A stretch of 43,173 nt of DNA from a virus (taxonomy: Duplodnaviria > Heunggongvirae > Uroviricota > Caudoviricetes), in IMG/VR virus record IMGVR_UViG_2844449076_000006. One strand, written 5' to 3'. Numbering within the stretch: the first letter of the stretch is position 1; each line of letters begins with the position of its first letter. A program made the position numbers and the translations under genes. Of the stretch, positions 20,962 to 33,548 are shown piece by piece. The notes under the pieces were generated by a model that did no database searches, was not told the origin of the DNA, and saw nothing but the letters and a program-made list of their open reading frames with translations.

Positions 20962-24642
<3,681 letters not shown>

Positions 24643-24668
<26 letters not shown>

Positions 24669-25188
24669 TCAGCAACCCCGGTATCAGTTCATCCAGCGCG
24701 GCTGCTTTGTTCATGGCTTTGATGATATCCCGTTTCAGGAAATCAACATGTCGGTTTTCCAGTTCCGGAAAACGCCGCTGCACCGACAGGGGGATCCCGT
24801 CGAGAATACTGGCAATTTCACCTGCGATCCGCGACAGCACGAAAGTACAGAATGCGGTTTCCACCACTTCAGCGGAGTCTCTGGCATTTTTCAGCTCCTG
24901 TGCGTCGGCCTGCGCACGCGTAAGTCGATGGCGTTCGTACTCAATAGTCCCTGGCTGGAGATCTGTCTCGCTGGCCTGCCGCAGTTCTTCAACTTCCCGG
25001 CGCAGCTTTTCGTTCTCAATTTCAGCATCCCTTTCGGCATACCATCTTATAACGGCGGCAGAGTCATAAAGCACCTCATTACCCTTGCCACCGCCTCGCA
25101 GAACGGGCATTCCCTGTTCCTGCCAGTTCTGAATGGTACGGATACTCGCACCGAAAATGTCAGCCAGCTGCTTTTTGTTGACTTCCAT
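24643..25188 (-). CDS. nu1: Terminase small subunit Nu1
   Basis: 181 aa, MEVNKKQLADIFGASIRTIQNWQEQGMPVLRGGGKGNEVLYDSAAV..., matches lambda gpNu1. Confidence 0.95.
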
Positions 25189-25852: not shown

Positions 25853-26278
25853 ATGGAAGGTACTACAATGGCTCAGGTTGCCATTTTTAAACAAATATTC
25901 GATAAAGTGCGAAATAATTTAAACTATCACTGGTTTTATTCTGAACTAAAACGTCACAATGTCTCACATTACATTTACTATTTAGCCACAGAGAATATTC
26001 ATCTTGTTCTTGAAAACGATAATACGGTTTTAATAAAAGGACAGGGTAAGGTTGTAAATGTAAGATTTTCAAAAAATAAATGCCTTATAGAAGCCACCTT
26101 AAAAGGATTCAAATCAGGAGAGTTATCATTTTACGAATACAGGAAAAATCTTGCTACAGCAGGGGTTTTCAGATGGATTACAAATATCCACGAAAACAAA
26201 AGGTATTACTATACCTTTGATAATTCATTACTCTTTACTGAGAACATACAGAACACTACACAAATATTTCCGCACTAA
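25853..26278 (+). CDS. Conserved lambdoid right-end protein, YbcV-like
   Basis: 141-aa ORF (likely start [18 protein letters not shown] at about 25868) resembling the ybcV/lambda right-arm ORF as recalled (…SHYIYYLAT…[10 protein letters not shown]…[13 protein letters not shown]…). Confidence 0.5.
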
Positions 26279-26457
26279 ATCATAACGTCCGGTTTCTTCC
26301 GTGCCAGAACCGGACTCGCTGGCATGATGAAATATGTGTACCCGGTAACCCCGGTGTGCATCGTTTTTGATTATTCCCGCACACTCGCGCAGAAGGAGTT
26401 CCCCGTCGGGCTACGGTCTCTGTTAATACGGGAATACGGCGACGATTGGATTTGCCC

Positions 26458-27363
26458 CTATATTTCCAGACATCTGTTATCACTTAACCCATTACAAGCC
26501 CGCTGCCGCAGATATTCCCGTGGCGAGCGATAACCCAGCGCACTATGCGGATGCCATTCGTTATAATGCTCGAACGCCTCTGCAAGGTTCTTTGCTGCCG
26601 TTAACCCGTCTGGTTTGGGCATGATACTGATGTAGTCACGCTTTATCGTTTTCACGAAGCTCTCTGCTATTCCGTTACTCTCCGGACTCCGCACCGCCGT
26701 GTTCTTCGGTTCAAGTCCCAACATCCGGGCGAACTGGCGTGTTTCATTAGCCCGGTAGCATGAACCATTATCCGTCAGCCACTCCACTGGAGACGACGGA
26801 AGATCGTTGCCGAAGCGGCGTTCCACCGCTCCCAGCATGACGTCCTGTACTGTTTCACTGTTGAAGCCGCCGGTAGTCACCGCCCAGTGCAGTGCCTCAC
26901 GATCACAGCAGTCCAGCGCGAACGTGACACGCAGTCTCTCTCCGTTATCACAGCAGAACTCGAACCCGTCAGAGCACCATCGCTGATTGCTTTCTTTCAC
27001 GGCCACTCTGCCTGTATGTGCCCGTTTCGATGGCGGTACAGCAGGTTTTCGCTCAAGCAACAGCGCATTCTGGCGCATGATCCGGTAAACACGTTTGGCA
27101 TTGATCGCAGGCATACCATCAAGTTCTGCCTGTCTGCGAAGCAGCGCCCATACCCGACGATAACCATACGTGGGCAGCTCTCCGATAACATGGTGTATAC
27201 GGAGAAGCACATCCGTATCATCAGTGTGACGACTGCGGCGGCCATCCATCCAGTCATCGGTTCGTCTGAGAATGACGTGCAACTGCGCACGCGACACCCG
27301 GAGACAACGGCTGACTAAGCTTACTCCCCATCCCCGGGCAATAAGGGCGCGTGCGCTATCCAC
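26458..27363 (-). CDS. insD: IS2 transposase OrfB (InsD)
   Basis: 301-aa ORF with IS3-family DDE transposase sequence (…WCSDGFEF…LTDNGSCY…[11 protein letters not shown]…). Confidence 0.95.
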
Positions 27364-27686
27364 TTTTTTGCCCGTCCATATTCAACGGCTTCTTTGAGGA
27401 GTTCATTTTCCATCGTTTTCTTGCCGAGCAGGCGCTGGAGTTCTTTAATCTGCTTCATGGCGGCAGCAAGTTCAGAGGCAGGAACAACCTGTTCTCCGGC
27501 GGCGACAGCAGTAAGACTTCCTTCCTGGTATTGCTTACGCCAGAGAAATAACTGGCTGGCTGCTACACCATGTTGCCGGGCAACGAGGGAGACCGTCATC
27601 CCCGGTTCAAAGCTCTGCTGAACAATTGCGATCTTTTCCTGTGTGGTACGCCGTCTGCGTTTCTCCGGCCCTAAGACATCAATCAT
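27321..27686 (-). CDS. insC: IS2 OrfA (InsC) DNA-binding subunit
   Basis: Starts [56 protein letters not shown]; overlaps insD in the -1 frame. Confidence 0.95.
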
Positions 27687-28202
27687 CTGTACTCCAATGA
27701 CTAGTCTAAAAACTAGTATTAAGACTATCACTTATTTAAGTGATACTGGTTGTCTGGAGATTCAGGGGGCCAGTCTAACGATACAGCGCATGATGTGTCA
27801 GGCTTGAATACCTTTATCCTTTAAAAGGGATATCAGTTAAGTTATCCCGTGTAGGGTATAAGCCATTATCAAAGCCACTCTGTAGGGAATGGCTTTTGTG
27901 ATGGCATCACTTACTCTTTACGCTGCTATCCCACTCATCCCGGAATTTTGATGGGTTATTGAAACCTTCTGCTGACATAACAACTCCTTCAATGTTTGGC
28001 TGAAATTGGGATGTCTTTCCATCAGTCCGCCACCACAAAGAATCTTTTTTGCCATAAGGCAGGAGGTTCATCTTTCAGTGGCTGCCGGTGTTATTTCCCC
28101 ACTTACTGGCTTGGGTTGTTTCGTGGTACTGCCGTTAACTGGTGGCCCAGAATAAATTCCGGTTTCATTATCAAGCCCACCCGTAAATGGGCTTTGTAAT
28201 GG

Positions 28203-28460
28203 CTACTTCGCTTTTGCTTCCGCTCGCTTACGCCGGCGCTCTTCTTTCCTCTCGGCTTTTGCCATGTCCATGAATGCCTGCATGATCGAGTTCCGCATCA
28301 TGTAGCTAACAAAGTGATGATTGACACAGCCGTTGAGGCGCAGCTGCTCGCCAAACTCATCCACCGAGGCCAATGCTTCCATCATGCCCTTCTCGCCTTT
28401 CATGAACTCTGAGAAGTCGCGCCCCGCTCTGGAGGCGCATTCAATAACATGATCACTCAT
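28203..28460 (-). CDS. Hypothetical small protein with strongly basic C-terminal tail; translationally coupled to upstream KilA-N gene
   Basis: 85-aa ORF MSDHVIECASRAGRDFSEFMKGEKGMMEALASVDEFGEQL...AKAERKEERRRKRAEAKAK; its start overlaps the upstream stop by 4 nt. No family recognised. Confidence 0.5.
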   Translation of the reverse strand: MSDHVIECASRAGRDFSEFMKGEKGMMEALASVDEFGEQLRLNGCVNHHFVSYMMRNSIMQAFMDMAKAERKEERRRKRAEAKAK

Positions 28461-28954
28461 CCCGGAAGCCCGGGGATCGTAATCTGCAGCTGGTTAGCCA
28501 GGGAGTTAATCTCAGCGACCAACACTGGCTTCGTATAGCGCCATGCTGCCAGCCCTTGTCCGCAGAAGCTCGCCATATCTTTCTTCTGGTCAAATTCATG
28601 ACATTTCATGTTGAGCTGCGCACTTAAGCTGTTGCGATGCTGAAGTTCTCCGGTGAAGTAGTCATCGAGGACTTTATAGGCCGCGTACTTGAACCCGGGG
28701 TTTAACCAAGCCGCATAATCGTAAGCAACAAACTTCCCGCCATATGTTCCACCGTGTACACCGCGCTCAGTAAAAACCACAGATTCGTGGTTTTTCTCCA
28801 GCTCGGCTAAGAACTCTTTGGTCTGCTTGTTTCGCAGGTAGTGGTAAGGCGATTCAGATTCACTTTTACCACTGGCTTTCCACATATCAGTGAGGCAGAT
28901 CATGCCATCTTCACCGATACGAATTGGTTGATTGAAGAGGGTTAATGATTTCAT
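28457..28954 (-). CDS. KilA-N domain protein (moron between Rz and cos)
   Basis: 165-aa ORF; N-terminal region (ICLTDMWKASGK…GGTYGGKFVAYDYAAWLNPGFKYAAYKVL) fits the KilA-N DNA-binding fold pattern as recalled. Confidence 0.6.
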   Translation of the reverse strand: MKSLTLFNQPIRIGEDGMICLTDMWKASGKSESESPYHYLRNKQTKEFLAELEKNHESVVFTERGVHGGTYGGKFVAYDYAAWLNPGFKYAAYKVLDDYFTGELQHRNSLSAQLNMKCHEFDQKKDMASFCGQGLAAWRYTKPVLVAEINSLANQLQITIPGLPG

Positions 28955-29155
28955 AGCGTGTACCTACTCTTTGAAATGAACCTTTGCCGCACAGGAAACC
29001 AGCCCACCGAGGCTCGCCAGCACTAACTGGTATCCTCAAAGGCCCATTCCAAAGGGGCAGGTTCGGTGTAAAAAACATGCGTTGCGGTACGCATTTATTG
29101 CAAAAAGCCCCGCATCGCGAGGCTCATTAAATGGACTTTGTGATTTGCAAAAAAA

Positions 29156-29626
29156 TTATTTCAGGCATTGCGTCCTGATGTATTCCTGCAGGTAGTTAAC
29201 CTGCGCGGTTATCTTGTCGATTCCACTTCGGAGACGGTAATAATTGAGTTCAGCATCTGCTGTAAGTCCTGGGCTTTCTCCATCGCCCATGCCGCTGGCT
29301 CCGGTCGTTGACTTTGCACAGGTGGCGGCGACTTGCAGGCGCTTACGCCCAGCAGAAACATCAGCACGGAGACTTTCGATAGTCGCGTTAGCATCAGCAA
29401 GCTCCTTTATGTATCTTGCGTCGAGTTCTGCTACATCACGTTGACGCTTCCGCATGTCAGCGATGGTGGCGTTCGCCTTCTCCAGTTCACTGGCCTTGTT
29501 ATCGCGCTGCTCTTTGTAGGCGATTGCGTTATCACGGTAATGATTAACAGCCAATGACAGGCAGACGATGATGCAGATAACCAGAGCGGAGATAATCGCG
29601 GTTACTCTGCTCATTGTTTCCCCCAC
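29156..29626 (-). CDS. rzpD: Spanin inner-membrane subunit Rz (i-spanin)
   Basis: N-terminal TM segment ([23 protein letters not shown]) followed by coiled-coil-like sequence; overlaps the lysozyme gene end; resembles DLP12 RzpD as recalled. Confidence 0.85.
29209..29400 (-). CDS. rzoD: Spanin outer-membrane lipoprotein subunit Rz1 (o-spanin), embedded in the +1 frame of Rz
   Basis: 63-aa ORF wholly inside Rz with a lipobox-like LLGVSAC and a proline-rich segment ([16 protein letters not shown]), the classic embedded Rz1 architecture. Confidence 0.7.
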
Positions 29627-30108
29627 AAACAGACTTCACGCTCAATCTCACGGCGAGTCATCAGTCCTTTCCATTGATTACCGCCAGCGTATGTCCAGCG
29701 CCGTAGCTGATCACATGCGCCTTTAATATCACCCTGGTTTATTTTGCGAAGAAGCGTCGATGTTCTGAAATTGCCAGCACCCACGTTGTAGACGAACGAG
29801 TAAAGAGCGCAGCGCGTTGTTTCCGGTATATCGACTTTGATGTACGGGTTAATTTGTCTGGCGACAGTGGCAAGGTCTTTATTCAGGAGGGCTTTGCACT
29901 CTGCTTCGGTATACGTTTTACCGGGAATGATGTCTTTTCCTGTATGCCCGTAACATACAGTCCATACACCAACTATGTCTTTGTAAGGATTATGTCTCAC
30001 ACCTTCCAGACCATCGTTACCACCTGGGCCAGTGATTAACACAGATGCTATAGCAATAGCCCCGCCACCAATAGCAGCAGCAACAGCTTTTCGTAATGAT
30101 GGAGGCAT
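29611..30108 (-). CDS. rrrD: Phage lysozyme/endolysin R
   Basis: 165 aa with T4-lysozyme-like catalytic region (…[25 protein letters not shown]…); matches DLP12 RrrD as recalled. Confidence 0.9.
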
Positions 30109-30323
30109 TATCCACCTCTCGCAGCCTTGCGCTTATCTTCTTTAATCTTGAAATAAAGGTTTGTCAGGTACGTCAGCAGGCCAAATACCAGGCTACCCAG
30201 CACTCCAATTGCCGCCCACTGTGAGGGCGTGACTTTATCTAGCAGCTGTAAAAACCAGTACCCGGCACTACCTGCTGAGGTGCCATAGGCGACACCCGTT
30301 GTTAACTTATCCATGGATTTCAT
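30108..30323 (-). CDS. essD: Holin (class II, DLP12 EssD-like)
   Basis: 71 aa with two hydrophobic helices and a charged C-terminus ([13 protein letters not shown]); immediately upstream of the endolysin gene. Confidence 0.9.
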
Positions 30324-30568: not shown

Positions 30569-30844
30569 GTGGCTTCTGTTTCTATCAGCTGTCCCTCCTG
30601 TTCAGCTACTGACGGGGTGGTGCGTAACGGCAAAAGCACTGCCGGACATCAGCGCTATCTCTGCTCTCACTGCCGTAAAACATGGCAACTGCAGTTCACT
30701 TACACCGCTTCTCAACCCGGTACGCACCAGAAAATCATTGATATGGCCATGAATGGCGTTGGATGCCGGGCAACTGCACGCATTATGGGCGTTGGCCTCA
30801 ACACGATTTTACGTCACTTAAAAAACTCAGGCCGCAGTCGGTAA
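30569..30844 (+). CDS. insA: IS1 transposase subunit InsA
   Basis: 91-aa ORF identical to the InsA of copy 1. Confidence 0.95.
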
Positions 30845-31266
30845 CCTCGCGCATACAGCCGGGCAGTGACGTCATCGTCTGCGCGGAAATGGACGAACAG
30901 TGGGGCTATGTCGGGGCTAAATCGCGCCAGCGCTGGCTGTTTTACGCGTATGACAGTCTCCGGAAGACGGTTGTTGCGCACGTATTCGGTGAACGCACTA
31001 TGGCGACGCTGGGGCGTCTTATGAGCCTGCTGTCACCCTTTGACGTGGTGATATGGATGACGGATGGCTGGCCGCTGTATGAATCCCGCCTGAAGGGAAA
31101 GCTGCACGTAATCAGCAAGCGATATACGCAGCGAATTGAGCGGCATAACCTGAATCTGAGGCAGCACCTGGCACGGCTGGGACGGAAGTCGCTGTCGTTC
31201 TCAAAATCGGTGGAGCTGCATGACAAAGTCATCGGGCATTATCTGAACATAAAACACTATCAATAA
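30763..31266 (+). CDS. insB: IS1 transposase InsB
   Basis: 167-aa ORF identical to the InsB of copy 1. Confidence 0.95.
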
Positions 31267-31671
31267 GTTGGAGTCATTACCCCAATTTTTTACGTACGTA
31301 AACCACTAAATGATATTTGCGAGAATGCTACCGAGTATTGAAAACACCACTACAAATACATAAGCAAATCCCAACAAATAACCAACAAATAATTTCCAGT
31401 GTTATTTTTAGCCGGTTTAAATTGAACCTTCAAATTATAGAGCACTTATAAATAACAGCCGTTAATATAAATTGGCTAATAGATTTATTTTTATTCAGTC
31501 AAGAGCCATGAATAGGATTCGATAGAAAAAAGTTCAGATAAAAATAGAGATCTACTTCACAAATCAAACGAGAAACCAAAACTTACATCTTGAAATAATC
31601 ACATTGATTAGATGAATATTTATCGCGCAATGACATCATTTTTTAATAATAGTTCAAAAAAAGGGCTCACG

Positions 31672-32754
31672 ATGAAAAAATTAACAGTGGCAATTTCTGC
31701 TGTAGCTGCATCAGTACTGATGGCGATGTCTGCTCAGGCAGCTGAAATTTATAATAAAGACAGTAACAAGCTGGATCTGTACGGGAAAGTTAATGCTAAG
31801 CACTACTTCTCCTCTAATGATGCAGATGATGGTGATACTACTTATGCCCGTCTTGGCTTCAAAGGTGAAACCCAAATCAACGATCAACTGACTGGTTTCG
31901 GTCAGTGGGAATATGAATTCAAAGGCAACCGCGCTGAATCTCAAGGTTCCTCCAAAGATAAAACCCGTCTTGCCTTCGCTGGCCTGAAATTCGGTGACTA
32001 CGGCTCCATCGATTACGGCCGTAACTACGGTGTAGCATACGACATCGGTGCGTGGACTGACGTCCTGCCAGAATTCGGTGGTGACACTTGGACTCAAACA
32101 GATGTGTTCATGACTGGTCGCACCACTGGTGTTGCAACTTATCGTAACAACGACTTCTTTGGTCTGGTTGATGGTCTGAACTTTGCTGCTCAGTATCAGG
32201 GTAAAAATGACCGCACTGACGTAACTGAAGCTAATGGTGATGGTTTCGGTTTCTCCACTACTTATGAGTATGAAGGATTCGGTGTAGGTGCAACCTATGC
32301 TAAATCTGACCGCACTAATAATCAGGTTATCTACGGTAACAACAGCCTGAATGCATCTGGTCAAAATGCTGAAGTATGGGCAGCTGGTCTGAAATATGAT
32401 GCGAACAACATCTATCTGGCTACCACCTATTCTGAAACCCAGAACATGACTGTTTTTGGTAATAACCATATTGCCAACAAAGCACAAAACTTCGAAGTAG
32501 TTGCACAATATCAGTTCGACTTCGGTCTGCGTCCGTCCGTTGCTTACCTGCAATCTAAAGGAAAAGACTTGGGTGCGTGGGGTGATCAGGACCTGGTTGA
32601 ATATATTGATGTAGGTGCAACCTATTACTTCAACAAAAATATGTCCACTTTTGTTGATTACAAAATCAACCTGATTGATAAGAGCGATTTCACGAAAGCA
32701 TCTGGCGTTGCTACCGATGATATCGTTGCTGTAGGTATGGTTTACCAGTTCTAA
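31672..32754 (+). CDS. nmpC: Phage-encoded general porin, OmpC/OmpF superfamily (NmpC/Lc type), apparently full length
   Basis: Signal peptide [23 protein letters not shown], porin motifs, C-terminal aromatic residue (…VAVGMVYQF); located between Q and the lysis genes on the opposite strand, as nmpC is in DLP12. Start trimmed to MKK. Confidence 0.85.
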
Positions 32755-32942: not shown

Positions 32943-33326
32943 TTAATTAGAGTTATTAACAACGATATCCATCTCTAACCGGATATCTAATGCCATTAAC
33001 ATCCCTTCAATTATGCCCTCAGCCTTCTGTAACCTTTTCCCGATATAACCATCAGAGCAGCAATGCTTACCTGCCAGTGACATGAATGTCATACCGACTA
33101 CATAATAATCTACTAATAAATCGTGCAAATCGCTGTTGTTCTTTTTCAGACGGGCCATGCACCCGCAAATAATCATCGCGTCATCGTCACAACATTGCGG
33201 GCGAGATTTTACTTTTGAAGTAATTAATCCCTTAAAACCGGCGGCAATGGACGACCAGGTCACATCTTCATGATTATTAGCCGCCCACGCTCCCCAACGC
33301 TCAAGAACCATCTGAATATCACGCAT
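32943..33326 (-). CDS. quuD: Late-gene antiterminator Q (DLP12 QuuD type)
   Basis: Starts [60 protein letters not shown], matching DLP12 QuuD as recalled; sits upstream of the late genes. Confidence 0.85.
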
Positions 33327-33548
33327 CAACTTACTCCACAAAAATCAGACCAGAACGCCAATTACAAGCAAAAATCAACAAAACAGTATTAGTTGATTGT
33401 TATCTCTGACTTCATACTCCTGCTCCTGTCAGGGTTTTGGCGTAATTCTTCAGTATTCGGTAATCGGTCAAAACAGAACCGGGGAAACGATATAAGCGCA
33501 GATGCCCCCAGCGGTGGCGAAGAAATTCTGCCATATAAAACTCAAACA

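Follow-up and report, generated by a model that had tools for sequence, protein, structure and literature searches.

The gene pair at positions 28,203 to 28,954 of the window (the whole 43,173-nucleotide stretch of viral DNA that was analysed) is a common, long-sequenced and uncharacterised cassette of lambda-like and P22-like phages, and we give about an even chance to its being a KilA-N allele of the rha locus in the late region of lambdoid and P22-like phages. The cassette comprises, in order, a terminator, a structured leader, a gene for a KilA-N-ORF11CD3 protein, an overlapping gene for an 85-aa protein and a 3' hairpin (Table 1). Its slot is the rha slot of P22 and phi80, between homologues of P22F (the leader) and P22G (the trailer). 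DNA matching the pair is present in more than a quarter of the complete E. coli genomes, and in Stx phages and the model phages HK620 and HK97, yet its function has never been assigned; placement at the rha locus offers a testable phenotype, namely inhibited phage growth and DNA synthesis and dependence on IHF.

Gene pair and neighbourhood

Both open reading frames were intact, and the sequence ATGA at 28457-28460 joins the stop codon of the 165-aa frame to the start codon of the 85-aa frame, in agreement with the 4-nt overlap given in an earlier note on this DNA. Ahead of the 85-aa start codon there is no separate Shine-Dalgarno sequence (CTTCCGGGATGA), and we infer from the sequence, as its most natural interpretation, that translation of the small gene is coupled to that of the KilA-N gene. 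The pair has the orientation of the late operon and lies directly 3' of Rz, with the lysis genes upstream and the terminase genes downstream, as the earlier note had also described. Between the pair and the terminase genes are a copy of IS2 and a plus-strand DUF1398/ybcV-like gene. Given that the prophage in the window is an IS-riddled remnant, its cassette is likely to be silent.

Table 1. Features of the cassette and its neighbourhood (positions in the window)
Feature	Position	Strand	Remarks
Holin gene	30108..30323	minus	upstream of pair
Endolysin gene	29611..30108	minus	upstream of pair
Rz/Rz1 genes	29156..29626	minus	directly upstream of pair
Terminator-like hairpin directly 3' of Rz, GAGCCTCGCGATGCGGGGC then T5	29102..29125	minus	read from sequence, folded
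Small GC hairpin, ATGCGTACCGCAACGCAT then T6	29070..29094	minus	terminator-like match, upstream alignment, fold
Leader hairpin, ~100 nt	28963..29061	minus	homologue of P22 small RNA P22F
KilA-N + ORF11CD3 gene, hkbK-type	28457..28954	minus	165 aa, ATG start
Gene for three-helix, basic-tailed protein, hkbL-type, PHROG 875	28203..28460	minus	85 aa, ATG start
Stem-loop AAAGCCCA-TTTACGG-TGGGCTT, directly after 85-aa stop	28173..28195	minus	3' boundary of cassette
Homologue of 3' two-thirds of P22G	28010..28148	minus	131/139 aligned bases identical to published P22G
IS2 copy	~26447..27777		between pair and terminase genes
Terminase gene	24643..25188	minus	downstream of pair
Terminase gene	22743..24668	minus	downstream of pair

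DNA matching the pair was present in 1,554 of 5,426 complete E. coli genomes, and the pair was found in 170 phage records, the carriers including HK620 (in which it is hkbK/hkbL), HK97 (gp73 and a small ORF) and Stx phages. No report on expression or function of an hkbK/hkbL-type pair of any phage was found in the literature. This extreme commonness, as well as the proposed rha allelism (slot, leader RNA and C-terminal domain), had been passed over in the earlier note.

Relation to the rha locus

According to secondary citations in PMC4936722, rha (orf201) was described by Mozola & Friedman (1985) and Henthorn & Friedman (1995), and Rha blocks phage growth in IHF-deficient hosts. The phi80 record states that Rha inhibits DNA synthesis in IHF-deficient hosts. 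In P22, rha comes directly after gene 15/Rz1 and encodes a protein with a Phage_pRha and an ORF11CD3 domain (96 bits for the latter); in phi80, it comes after Rz/Rz1 and a terminator. The cassette in the window is like both in its slot, late-operon orientation, ORF11CD3 domain, 5' leader hairpin and downstream P22G-like element, and BLASTP matched the last 68 residues of the KilA-N-ORF11CD3 protein to P22 Rha (35% identity, E=1e-8). It is unlike them in the N-terminal DNA-binding domain, which is KilA-N and not Phage_pRha (PF09669); the latter was absent from the 165-aa protein in the Pfam scan. The gene would thus be an allele of the rha locus, and its product falls outside the Rha protein family.

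The window also differs in having the 85-aa gene, as no such gene follows rha at the examined loci of P22, phi80 and Pantoea phage PA-1. Two candidates for a counterpart were rejected: P22 orf80 corresponds to HK620 hkbM (DUF2560), and the 72-aa frame that PA-1 has coupled to its Rha-like gene is unrelated and matches the C-terminus of head fibre proteins.

P22G is a P22 small RNA directly downstream of rha. Its homologue in the window, judged from the alignment, appears to mark where the replaced segment with rha ends on the right, and it overlaps a match to the Rfam family Proteo-phage-1 (RF03044) that stayed below threshold (19.8 bits vs. a gathering score of 42). An IHF consensus site was not found near the cassette, the search having matched only IS1 ends, and the connection to IHF known from rha may thus not extend to this allele.

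Leader RNA and flanking hairpins

The KilA-N gene has its Shine-Dalgarno sequence (AGAGTAGGT, 28962-28970) within the 3' arm of the leader, and the predicted fold of the leader has a minimum free energy of -48.7 kcal/mol (z=-3.1). The leader was identical to P22F at 81 of 81 bases (28968-29048); P22F, an sncRNA, was recently detected experimentally as an RNA upstream of P22 rha. Almost every base of the gap between Rz and the gene could be aligned with P22, including the hairpin (columns 107-208), the homology ending at the Shine-Dalgarno sequence and ATG, and the HK620-type leader was 100% identical over 113 nt to the leader ahead of phi80 rha. In the databases, the start codons of rha appear miscalled because their positions fall inside the leader.

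One long hairpin was the predicted fold of every sequence variant of the leader (z from -2.4 to -4.7), and the covariance model matched positions 28949-29063 of the window (50.6 bits, E about 1e-9). In the alignment fitted to the model, which favours structure, 95.6% of the cells were paired and compensatory changes were seen in 27 of 31 pairs, compared with 39-51% and 4-6 pairs in slid controls; independent alignments with MAFFT/RNAalifold gave fewer compensatory pairs (6-9). The reverse strand scored far lower with the model (29 vs. 122 bits) and G-U pairs were frequent, both of which point to an RNA on the sense strand. Searches of Rfam with four variants gave no family for the leader.

This leader precedes at least six gene architectures (KilA-N-ORF11CD3, KilA-N-P63C, pRha-ORF11CD3, P22_AR_N-ORF11CD3, HNH-AP2 and T5orf172 nuclease-like), the last three being loci at which the covariance model also found it, and homology between the loci of the leader variants is lost at the start codon. 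The Scandinavium locus has an HNH gene, with a leader to itself, between Rz and the KilA-N gene, which retains only the 3' arm of a leader.

As folded, the hairpin would hold translation of the KilA-N gene very low. Translation would depend on removal or opening of the 5' arm by an endonuclease, and this processing would release an RNA like P22F; we regard P22F as a likely processed, ribosome-binding-site-occluding leader of this sort, and its published ends do not resemble a simple RNase III product. By analogy with Rha, the KilA-N protein is probably harmful when over-made, which would explain the tight translational throttle, and the shared leader would account for such genes sitting harmlessly inside an essential late operon. 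Ribosome-binding-site-occluding hairpins are also known from late and homing-endonuclease genes of T4, where a promoter lies inside the hairpin; the occlusion is alike, whereas no promoter was found inside the cassette leader. The IsrK leader of the Gifsy-1 isrK-orf45-anrP operon is likewise a structured 5' RNA upstream of a regulator gene; it accumulates as a small RNA and is linked to a translationally inactive read-through transcript, features that the cassette leader would share. A trans-activation mechanism like that of IsrK was not found for the cassette leader, and the two have no sequence or Rfam relationship.

Hairpins flank the cassette on both sides. The terminator-like hairpin directly 3' of Rz forms the 5' boundary, and the same terminator is found ahead of the cassette elsewhere, including the tail-gene region of Klebsiella phage RAH1. 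The small GC hairpin corresponds to a conserved GCGCA-N6-GCGCA motif ahead of the leader in other variants. At the other end, a hairpin right after the stop codon is kept at the E. coli, Scandinavium, Klebsiella and Raoultella loci and was absent from a Trabulsiella locus (L015); its role as a terminator is uncertain because the U-tract is weak. A sigma-70 consensus promoter was not found in the 200-bp gap between Rz and the KilA-N gene with a crude scan, which could miss a weak or activator-dependent promoter. The pair would then be transcribed by Q-antiterminated read-through of the late operon, and not from a prophage promoter.

KilA-N protein

The KilA-N domain (Pfam PF04383; Iyer et al. 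2002) was recognised in residues 9-101 of the 165-aa protein at 57.6 bits (cut-off, 23.8; E=1.3e-15), so the call made in the earlier note held when put to the domain search that it had asked for. The N-terminus has an APSES-like DNA-binding fold, and the C-terminus is a long helical hairpin, ORF11CD3 (50.5 bits; cut-off, 25). Full-length homologues were 53-95% identical. No match to the cassette was obtained in NCBIfam, nor in the sequence search of the PDB. The protein is probably oligomeric via the helical hairpin, and it would act late in infection as a sequence-specific DNA-binding protein. To our knowledge, and by the account of Owen et al. (2021), phenotypes have been described for only two KilA-N proteins: P1 KilA, which kills the host, and BstA, which acts in abortive infection.

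It is unlikely, in our estimate, that the KilA-N-ORF11CD3 protein and its partner inactivate the repressor of their own or of co-resident prophages or satellites, in the manner of P22 Ant or the Gifsy antirepressors. Such a role would fit the P22_AR_N proteins that share the leader and also end in ORF11CD3, the label 'anti-repressor' that RefSeq gives to P22 rha, weak matches to 'anti-repressor' families of PHROG, and a distant homologue of the small-protein domain that lies beside an Arc/Arc/Bro-N module resembling immI. However, these labels are annotation transfers and not experiments, and the P22_AR_N, ANT and AntA domains were absent from the pair (Pfam scan, E<=1). No control of the Mnt/Arc/sar type or LexA type adjoins the pair, and from a late-operon position the product would be made only after induction had already occurred. 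Moreover, no KilA-N protein has been demonstrated to be an antirepressor: the activity that the earlier note had ascribed to them has been documented elsewhere in the Bro network (P22 Ant). The cassette was indeed matched to a recurrent module, but to an uncharacterised one and not to the well-characterised antirepressor module that the note had allowed for.

85-aa protein

The 85-aa ORF is a real gene under purifying selection: the protein matched PHROG 875 over residues 1-85 of 85 (E=1.3e-53), and dN/dS was 0.04-0.31 against homologues down to 53% identity. Of the two weaknesses that the earlier note had considered for this frame, lack of conservation was not observed, while a ribosome-binding signal of its own is missing. 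The lysine/arginine/glutamate-rich tail that the note had mentioned was present (...KAERKEERRRKRAEAKAK), and the protein is still unrecognised in the sense meant there, as neither Pfam nor NCBIfam has a family for it and PHROG 875 is annotated as of unknown function. The AlphaFold model has three helices (pLDDT 92.4); the modelled fold is a generic three-helix bundle, closest to protein-interaction modules rather than to DNA binders.

The N-terminal part (residues 3-60, about 58 residues) was homologous to the N-terminal domain of T5orf172/GIY-YIG-like proteins. The protein matched phrog_4284 (E=3.8e-6) and, with HHalign, epsilon34 gp68 (94.6% probability), and the homologues P0132 and P0135 gave reciprocal matches to phrog_875. 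In P0132, P0135 and epsilon34 gp68 the domain is part of a fusion protein, and the gene of P0132 lies immediately upstream of a KilA-N-P63C gene. T5orf172/GIY-YIG-like proteins occupy the same slot in other phages. By these similarities, the 85-aa protein is a free-standing copy of the N-terminal domain of T5orf172/GIY-YIG-like proteins of the PHROG 4284/epsilon34 gp68 type, with a basic helix at its end in place of the C-terminal T5orf172/MUG113 domain, which is absent. This link adds a new module to the 'domain-shuffling network' of Bro/KilA proteins. A candidate metal site of Cys and His residues (C8, C45, H48 and H49), invariant or nearly so in close homologues, was rejected because C8 is lost in P0122, P0132 and epsilon34 gp68, and C45/H48 in P0135.

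In the Vibrio PLE satellite, the small DNA-binding repressor CapR is a free-standing homologue of the domain with which T5orf172-type putative homing endonucleases begin (Netter et al. 2021, PMC8096241). The 85-aa protein stands in the same relation to the PHROG 4284/epsilon34 gp68 proteins. However, the two N-terminal domains have no sequence similarity, and CapR has cysteine clusters, whereas the 85-aa protein is a predicted all-helical bundle with a basic tail.

A KilA-N gene preceded the homologue of the 85-aa gene in 89 of 89 fetched loci, either of the ORF11CD3 type with the ATGA overlap or of the P63C type with a 2-nt gap; the diversity of this sample is limited, since the IMG/VR scan gave mostly near-identical copies and the scan of the genome collection five loci. 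The clades of the small protein reassort freely with both partner types, which argues against a tight, co-evolving physical complex. The small protein would be made only via termination-reinitiation coupling, and hence in fixed proportion to the large one, and it may serve as an adaptor or a nucleic-acid-binding cofactor.

We also think it improbable that the pair is a decayed or domesticated endonuclease-type element of little benefit to the phage, in a selfish mobile cassette with the leader and flanking hairpins as recombination linkers. The leader shared with HNH-AP2 and T5orf172/GIY-YIG-like genes, the stop of homology exactly at the start codon, the copy in the tail-gene region of RAH1, the inserted HNH gene with its own leader in Scandinavium, the origin of the small protein as a detached domain of a nuclease-like protein, and the existence of frameshifted or truncated copies of the KilA-N gene are all in line with it. 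On the other hand, neither protein has a nuclease domain, the dN/dS values of the small gene and the full-length homologues of the large one point to clear purifying selection on both, and the high prevalence and conserved gene order argue for a selected function.

Possible function

A moron (in the sense of Juhala and Hendrix) is an autonomous unit expressed from the prophage, with its own promoter upstream and a terminator downstream. The earlier note had placed the pair in this frame, as a carrier of lysogenic-conversion or anti-defence functions at the position of lambda bor. This framing was not supported: the pair, in contrast to bor, points the same way as the late operon, the crude consensus scan gave no promoter, two terminator-like hairpins and the hairpin that pairs with the Shine-Dalgarno sequence precede the gene, and the PADLOC matches were weak and at the level of domains. 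Given the lack of a promoter match and the direction shared with the late operon, we favour a Rha-like DNA-binding module, expressed late and throttled in translation, over a lysogenic-conversion moron of the bor type.

An extended form of the Rha-like reading is possible but doubtful. The leader may be a portable cis-regulatory RNA that gates translation of potentially toxic DNA-binding and nuclease genes (KilA-N, pRha, P22_AR_N, HNH-AP2 and T5orf172) in late operons and also serves as a recombination linker between phages, and the KilA-N protein and its partner, derived from the N-terminal domain of a homing endonuclease, may form a two-part DNA-targeting complex that stops late DNA replication (the Rha phenotype) or a competing phage.

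Prophage-encoded defence, with the pair made in the lysogen and acting against superinfecting phages as BstA or lysis-cassette morons do, seems to us quite unlikely. A moron is known from this slot (lambda bor), Rha is noted as an inhibitor of DNA synthesis, and PADLOC matched the candidate system PDC-S22, weakly (E=1e-8 over ~30 residues). BstA, also from a temperate enterobacterial phage, has an N-terminal KilA-N-type domain and blocks phage DNA replication (PMC8585504), and inhibition of DNA replication would be common to both systems, for the window pair by analogy through Rha. But BstA has ~307 aa and an unrelated C-terminal domain (Owen et al. 2021, PMC8585504), whereas the window protein has 165 aa, ends in ORF11CD3 and lacks the conserved C-terminal domain of the BstA family; the BstA model of PADLOC gave no match to the pair. 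The bstA gene adjoins the immunity region, has an anti-BstA DNA element inside it and is expressed in the lysogen (PMC8585504), none of which was seen for the pair. The lack of a promoter match, the late-operon direction and the burial of the Shine-Dalgarno sequence in the hairpin speak against this reading, and the leader also serves HNH and GIY-YIG-like genes, a pattern that is no signature of defence.

A late anti-defence or host take-over factor, for example one protecting progeny DNA or inhibiting a host nuclease or defence, is very improbable. In its favour are the position, since accessory genes near the lysis/packaging junction are often counter-defence genes, and the basic tail, with which the small protein could contact nucleic acid. 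Against it, the pair has no similarity to any known anti-defence protein, nothing in the domain, structure or PADLOC searches points there, and late timing fits counter-defence poorly.

Comparison with HK620 and HK97

HK620 has the same pair with the same ATGA overlap in the same slot, and a small protein 98.8% identical to that of the window; its leader is the phi80-type variant, whereas that of the window is P22-type. In HK97, a KilA-N gene in the same slot is followed by a gene for the same small protein, with 94% identity over residues 1-54, but gp73 is a KilA-N + P63C protein of 242 aa, the two genes are separated by a 2-nt gap and do not overlap, and the 3' end of the small gene diverges.

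Gene pair and leader hairpin

The earlier note had described, downstream of the lysis genes, a 165-aa KilA-N ORF whose stop overlaps the start of an 85-aa ORF; its coordinates and description of the pair were correct, with the sole omission that everything is on the minus strand. The TGA stop of the first ORF shares bases with the ATG of the second (ATGA overlap).

Positions of features in the window and in comparison loci
Feature	Position	Strand	Remark
Terminase gene	22743-24668		downstream of the pair
Terminase gene	24643-25188		downstream of the pair
DUF1398/ybcV-like gene	25853-26278	plus	
IS2 copy	~26447-27777		downstream of the pair, separating it from ybcV/terminase
Second hairpin and GATAATG boundary	27871-27897		
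Micro-ORF	27907-27978	minus	
P22G-like element	28010-28148	minus	
Proteo-phage-1 match	28080-28115		sub-threshold
85-aa ORF	28203-28460	minus	
165-aa KilA-N ORF	28457-28954	minus	200-bp gap to Rz
Conserved leader region	28949-29125	minus	
Leader hairpin (~100 nt)	28963-29061	minus	MFE -48.7 kcal/mol, z = -3.1
P22F-identical segment	28968-29048		
Small GC hairpin with U6 run	29070-29094	minus	
Canonical terminator after Rz stop	29102-29125	minus	
Rz with embedded Rz1	29156-29626	minus	
Endolysin	29611-30108	minus	
Holin	30108-30323	minus	
Porin gene	31612-32754	plus	
Q	32943-33341		
IS21	36322-38291		
IS1 copies (4)	558-1061, 30569-31266, 38373-38876, 42476-42979		
LacY-like permease gene	39025-40272		
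Leader copies, other loci	L006 2399-2512; L010 (P22) 2036-2150; L097 4033-4139; L093 1022-1131; L064 479-595		

The leader hairpin is part of the cassette unit, although it lies beyond the interval that the earlier note had assigned to the pair. Its 3' arm holds the Shine-Dalgarno sequence, 6 nt ahead of the KilA-N ATG. Sequence-divergent variants (HK620, Raoultella, Trabulsiella, the HK97/RAH1/phiEt88 type and the Rha gene of Pantoea phage PA-1) were folded and gave the same long hairpin (z -2.4 to -4.7). The hairpin base pairs with the Shine-Dalgarno sequence in the HK620, Raoultella, Trabulsiella and PA-1 folds; in the minimum-energy folds of HK97 and RAH1 this sequence was outside it.

A covariance model built from seven HK620-type leaders matched the window leader (50.6 bits, E ~1e-9) and detected copies directly upstream of genes of six architectures: KilA-N-ORF11CD3, KilA-N-P63C, pRha-ORF11CD3 (P22, PA-1), P22_AR_N-ORF11CD3 (a gene immediately upstream of Rz), HNH_3-AP2 endonucleases and a T5orf172/MUG113 protein. 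In the model-fitted alignment, 95.6% of cells paired and compensatory double changes occurred in 27 of 31 pairs (slid controls: 39-51% paired, 4-6 pairs), figures that are inflated by the fitting to the model; independent MAFFT/RNAalifold alignments gave 6-9 compensatory pairs. Frequent G-U pairs and the reverse-strand score (29 versus 122 bits) favour a sense-strand RNA. Rfam gave a family match for none of the leader variants searched. By BLAST, the HK620-type leader was 100% identical over 113 nt ahead of phi80 rha and in several other phages, was ~87% identical in many Stx phages, and preceded a GIY-YIG-like gene in epsilon34. The window-type leader alone occurred in 836 of 5,426 E. coli genomes, where annotation either passes over it or takes it into the 5' part of ORFs called "Rha family".

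The leader RNA exists in P22. Small-RNA sequencing of P22 infection, published in June 2026, reported ten P22 sncRNAs, of which P22F (89 nt, RT-PCR-validated) ends 6 nt ahead of the rha start codon and has "no known function" (PMC13397905). P22F spans the leader hairpin's upper four-fifths together with the Shine-Dalgarno region, and the window was identical to it at 81/81 positions. Its 5' end is just 3' of the segment pairing with the Shine-Dalgarno sequence, and putative processing at this end would unmask the ribosome-binding site. A covarying RNA that lacks an Rfam family and is common to six gene architectures was reported only in 2026, as an RNA without an assigned function.

In the Scandinavium hiltneri locus (L013, 3573-4254), the place between Rz and a KilA-N-P63C gene is taken by an HNH-AP2 endonuclease gene, which has a complete leader of its own, and the KilA-N-P63C gene retains just the 3' arm of the leader. 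This arrangement suggests that the hairpin was the site of insertion, or of recombination, of the endonuclease gene. Phage Dewey has a similar HNH insertion. A GCGCA-N6-GCGCA(T) motif is conserved in many loci between the Rz terminator and the long hairpin (~2370-2398 in L006; the small GC hairpin in the window); the motif is able to fold as a short GC hairpin; alternatively, it could be a direct repeat, spaced by one helical turn, to which a protein binds. In the window variant the U6 run follows, as in a second terminator.

Relation to rha

In P22, rha (domains Phage_pRha and ORF11CD3) directly follows gene 15/Rz1; in phi80, where the record annotation is "DNA synthesis inhibition in IHF- hosts", it follows Rz/Rz1 and a terminator. 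Over its C-terminal 68 residues, the window KilA-N protein was 35% identical to P22 Rha (E=1e-8), the terminal IPGL motif included. Between Rz and the gene, window and P22 align at nearly every position, the leader hairpin included, and their homology stops at the Shine-Dalgarno/ATG; on the other side, 131/139 positions were identical to the region downstream of P22 rha, the published sncRNA P22G. Since the flanks are conserved on both sides, the KilA-N gene and the small gene replace rha precisely. This placement opens concrete Rha-based experiments.

The annotated starts of P22 rha (201 aa; L010, NC_002371, 2076 versus 2145) and phi80 rha (L099, 2673) fall inside the leader, as do those of E. 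coli RefSeq "Rha family transcriptional regulator" calls. Judged from sequence, the true P22 start is likely the ATG that directly follows the leader, which makes the protein 178 aa long, not 201, and the start used in PMC13397905 agrees with this.

The window KilA-N protein (residues 155-165), P22 Rha and PA-1 Rha have in common a C-terminal tail, Q-(I/T)-(T/V)-I-P-G-(L/I), which is kept across ORF11CD3 proteins with different N-terminal domains and may be a short linear interaction motif. The P22G-like element overlaps a sub-threshold Rfam match to Proteo-phage-1 (RF03044; 19.8 bits, gathering score 42), a motif of which P22G may be a divergent member or a neighbour. Just after this element, at the position of P22 orf25, is a micro-ORF (MSAEGFNNPSKFRDEWDSSVKSK) with a strong Shine-Dalgarno sequence (GAAGGAG), then a second hairpin and GATAATG boundary resembling the end of the KilA-N cassette.

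The 85-aa protein

Both proteins of the pair are real. Domain searches of both gave no Pfam or NCBIfam family for the 85-aa protein, which belongs to the function-unassigned PHROG 875 (E=1e-53). The dN/dS of its gene was 0.04-0.31, with homologues down to 53% identity, indicating purifying selection. Its structural model (pLDDT 92.4) has helices at 3-20, 26-42 and 48-84, with the K/R/E-rich tail placed on the third, and fold searches returned generic helical bundles only. The family is tiny and limited to Enterobacterales: clustering at 90% identity leaves 137 clusters, and a profile search of 1.84 billion proteins yielded 21 representatives at E<=1e-3.

The profile search also recovered distant relatives of 161-179 aa, whose N-terminal domain corresponds to the first ~60 residues of the small protein and whose C-terminal half is a T5orf172/MUG113 (GIY-YIG-superfamily) domain. 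T5orf172 is a member of the KilA-N/Bro "domain-shuffling network". The fusion proteins (PHROG 4284, including P0132, P0135 and epsilon34 gp68, the last with an HHalign probability of 94.6%) were found in the same slots as the KilA-N cassette. The genes of P0135 and epsilon34 gp68 follow the same leader and are located between lysis genes and terminase; that of P0132 is in a tail-region slot, directly ahead of a KilA-N-P63C gene and beside an Arc/Arc/Bro-N module. A precedent for a free-standing N-terminal domain of a T5orf172-type protein as DNA-binding regulator is the PLE protein CapR (PMC8096241).

In the tail-region accessory island of L096 (GCA_046521305.1, 5001-9327) the order is fusion gene, KilA-N-P63C and Arc/Arc/Bro-N; the last module resembles immI, and several Bro-network genes are clustered in one slot.

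Distribution

The 1-kb pair region was matched in 170 phage records and in 1,554 of 5,426 complete E. coli genomes. The same pair is hkbK/hkbL of HK620 and occurs in Stx phages 1717 and 2851, PhiR49_1, ECP1 and several P22-like Salmonella phages; it is a very common, long sequenced, uncharacterised variant of a class of late-region regulators that is known but itself poorly understood. An alternative large partner (KilA-N + P63C, 242-268 aa) precedes the same small gene, with a 2-nt gap replacing the overlap, in HK97, in mEp234 and in some prophages of Scandinavium, Raoultella and Trabulsiella. The gene directly upstream of the small gene was KilA-N, or a frameshifted or truncated copy of it, in all 89 loci examined. 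E. coli-type and Klebsiella-type small proteins each occur with ORF11CD3 and P63C partners, which argues against tight co-evolution with one partner. In Klebsiella phage RAH1 the cassette, preceded by the same terminator and leader, is placed between the genes for major tail and tape measure; on such positional evidence the cassette is mobile.

Expression and possible function

The explanation that we favour, a KilA-N allele of the rha locus with a late-expressed, throttled working mode, stands at about even chances as a whole; its structural and evolutionary part is highly probable, and its functional part is tentative. A consensus scan of the 200-bp Rz-kilA gap found no promoter ahead of the pair; for this reason, and because of the late-operon co-orientation and the position behind terminators, the pair would be transcribed within the Q-dependent late transcript. 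The hairpin would hold KilA-N translation very low until processed or opened. In neither arrangement (ATGA overlap or 2-nt gap) does the small gene have its own Shine-Dalgarno sequence, so that termination-reinitiation coupling is the natural reading, and the small protein would be made only through coupling. The KilA-N protein, a predicted DNA-binding protein, is probably an oligomer formed via its helical hairpin and, by analogy with Rha, may be harmful if over-made, which would explain the throttle. The small partner may be an adaptor or nucleic-acid-binding cofactor.

Among other readings of the pair, that it encodes an antirepressor is unlikely, and an essentially selfish cassette is equally so. 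A BstA-like defence, which would be expressed in lysogens, is slightly less probable again, and anti-defence is very improbable.

State of the prophage

The window prophage is a remnant: Q and a NinB-like gene are followed by IS21, IS1 copies and the LacY-like permease gene. Both pair genes and the leader are nevertheless intact: the region shares 99.5% identity with the inducible phage PhiR49_1, and IMG/VR loci encode proteins identical to the KilA-N protein and to the 85-aa protein. The prophage is truncated on the early side, next to the permease gene. Four IS1 copies (one between the porin gene and holin), IS2 and IS21 are carried in 43 kb; this load and 100%-identical partial proteins from Shigella sonnei suggest a Shigella or Shigella-like host. 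The porin gene (Porin_1, OmpD/NmpC-like), which is between Q and holin on the opposite strand, is classical lysogenic-conversion-type cargo, and PhiR49_1 has a porin too.
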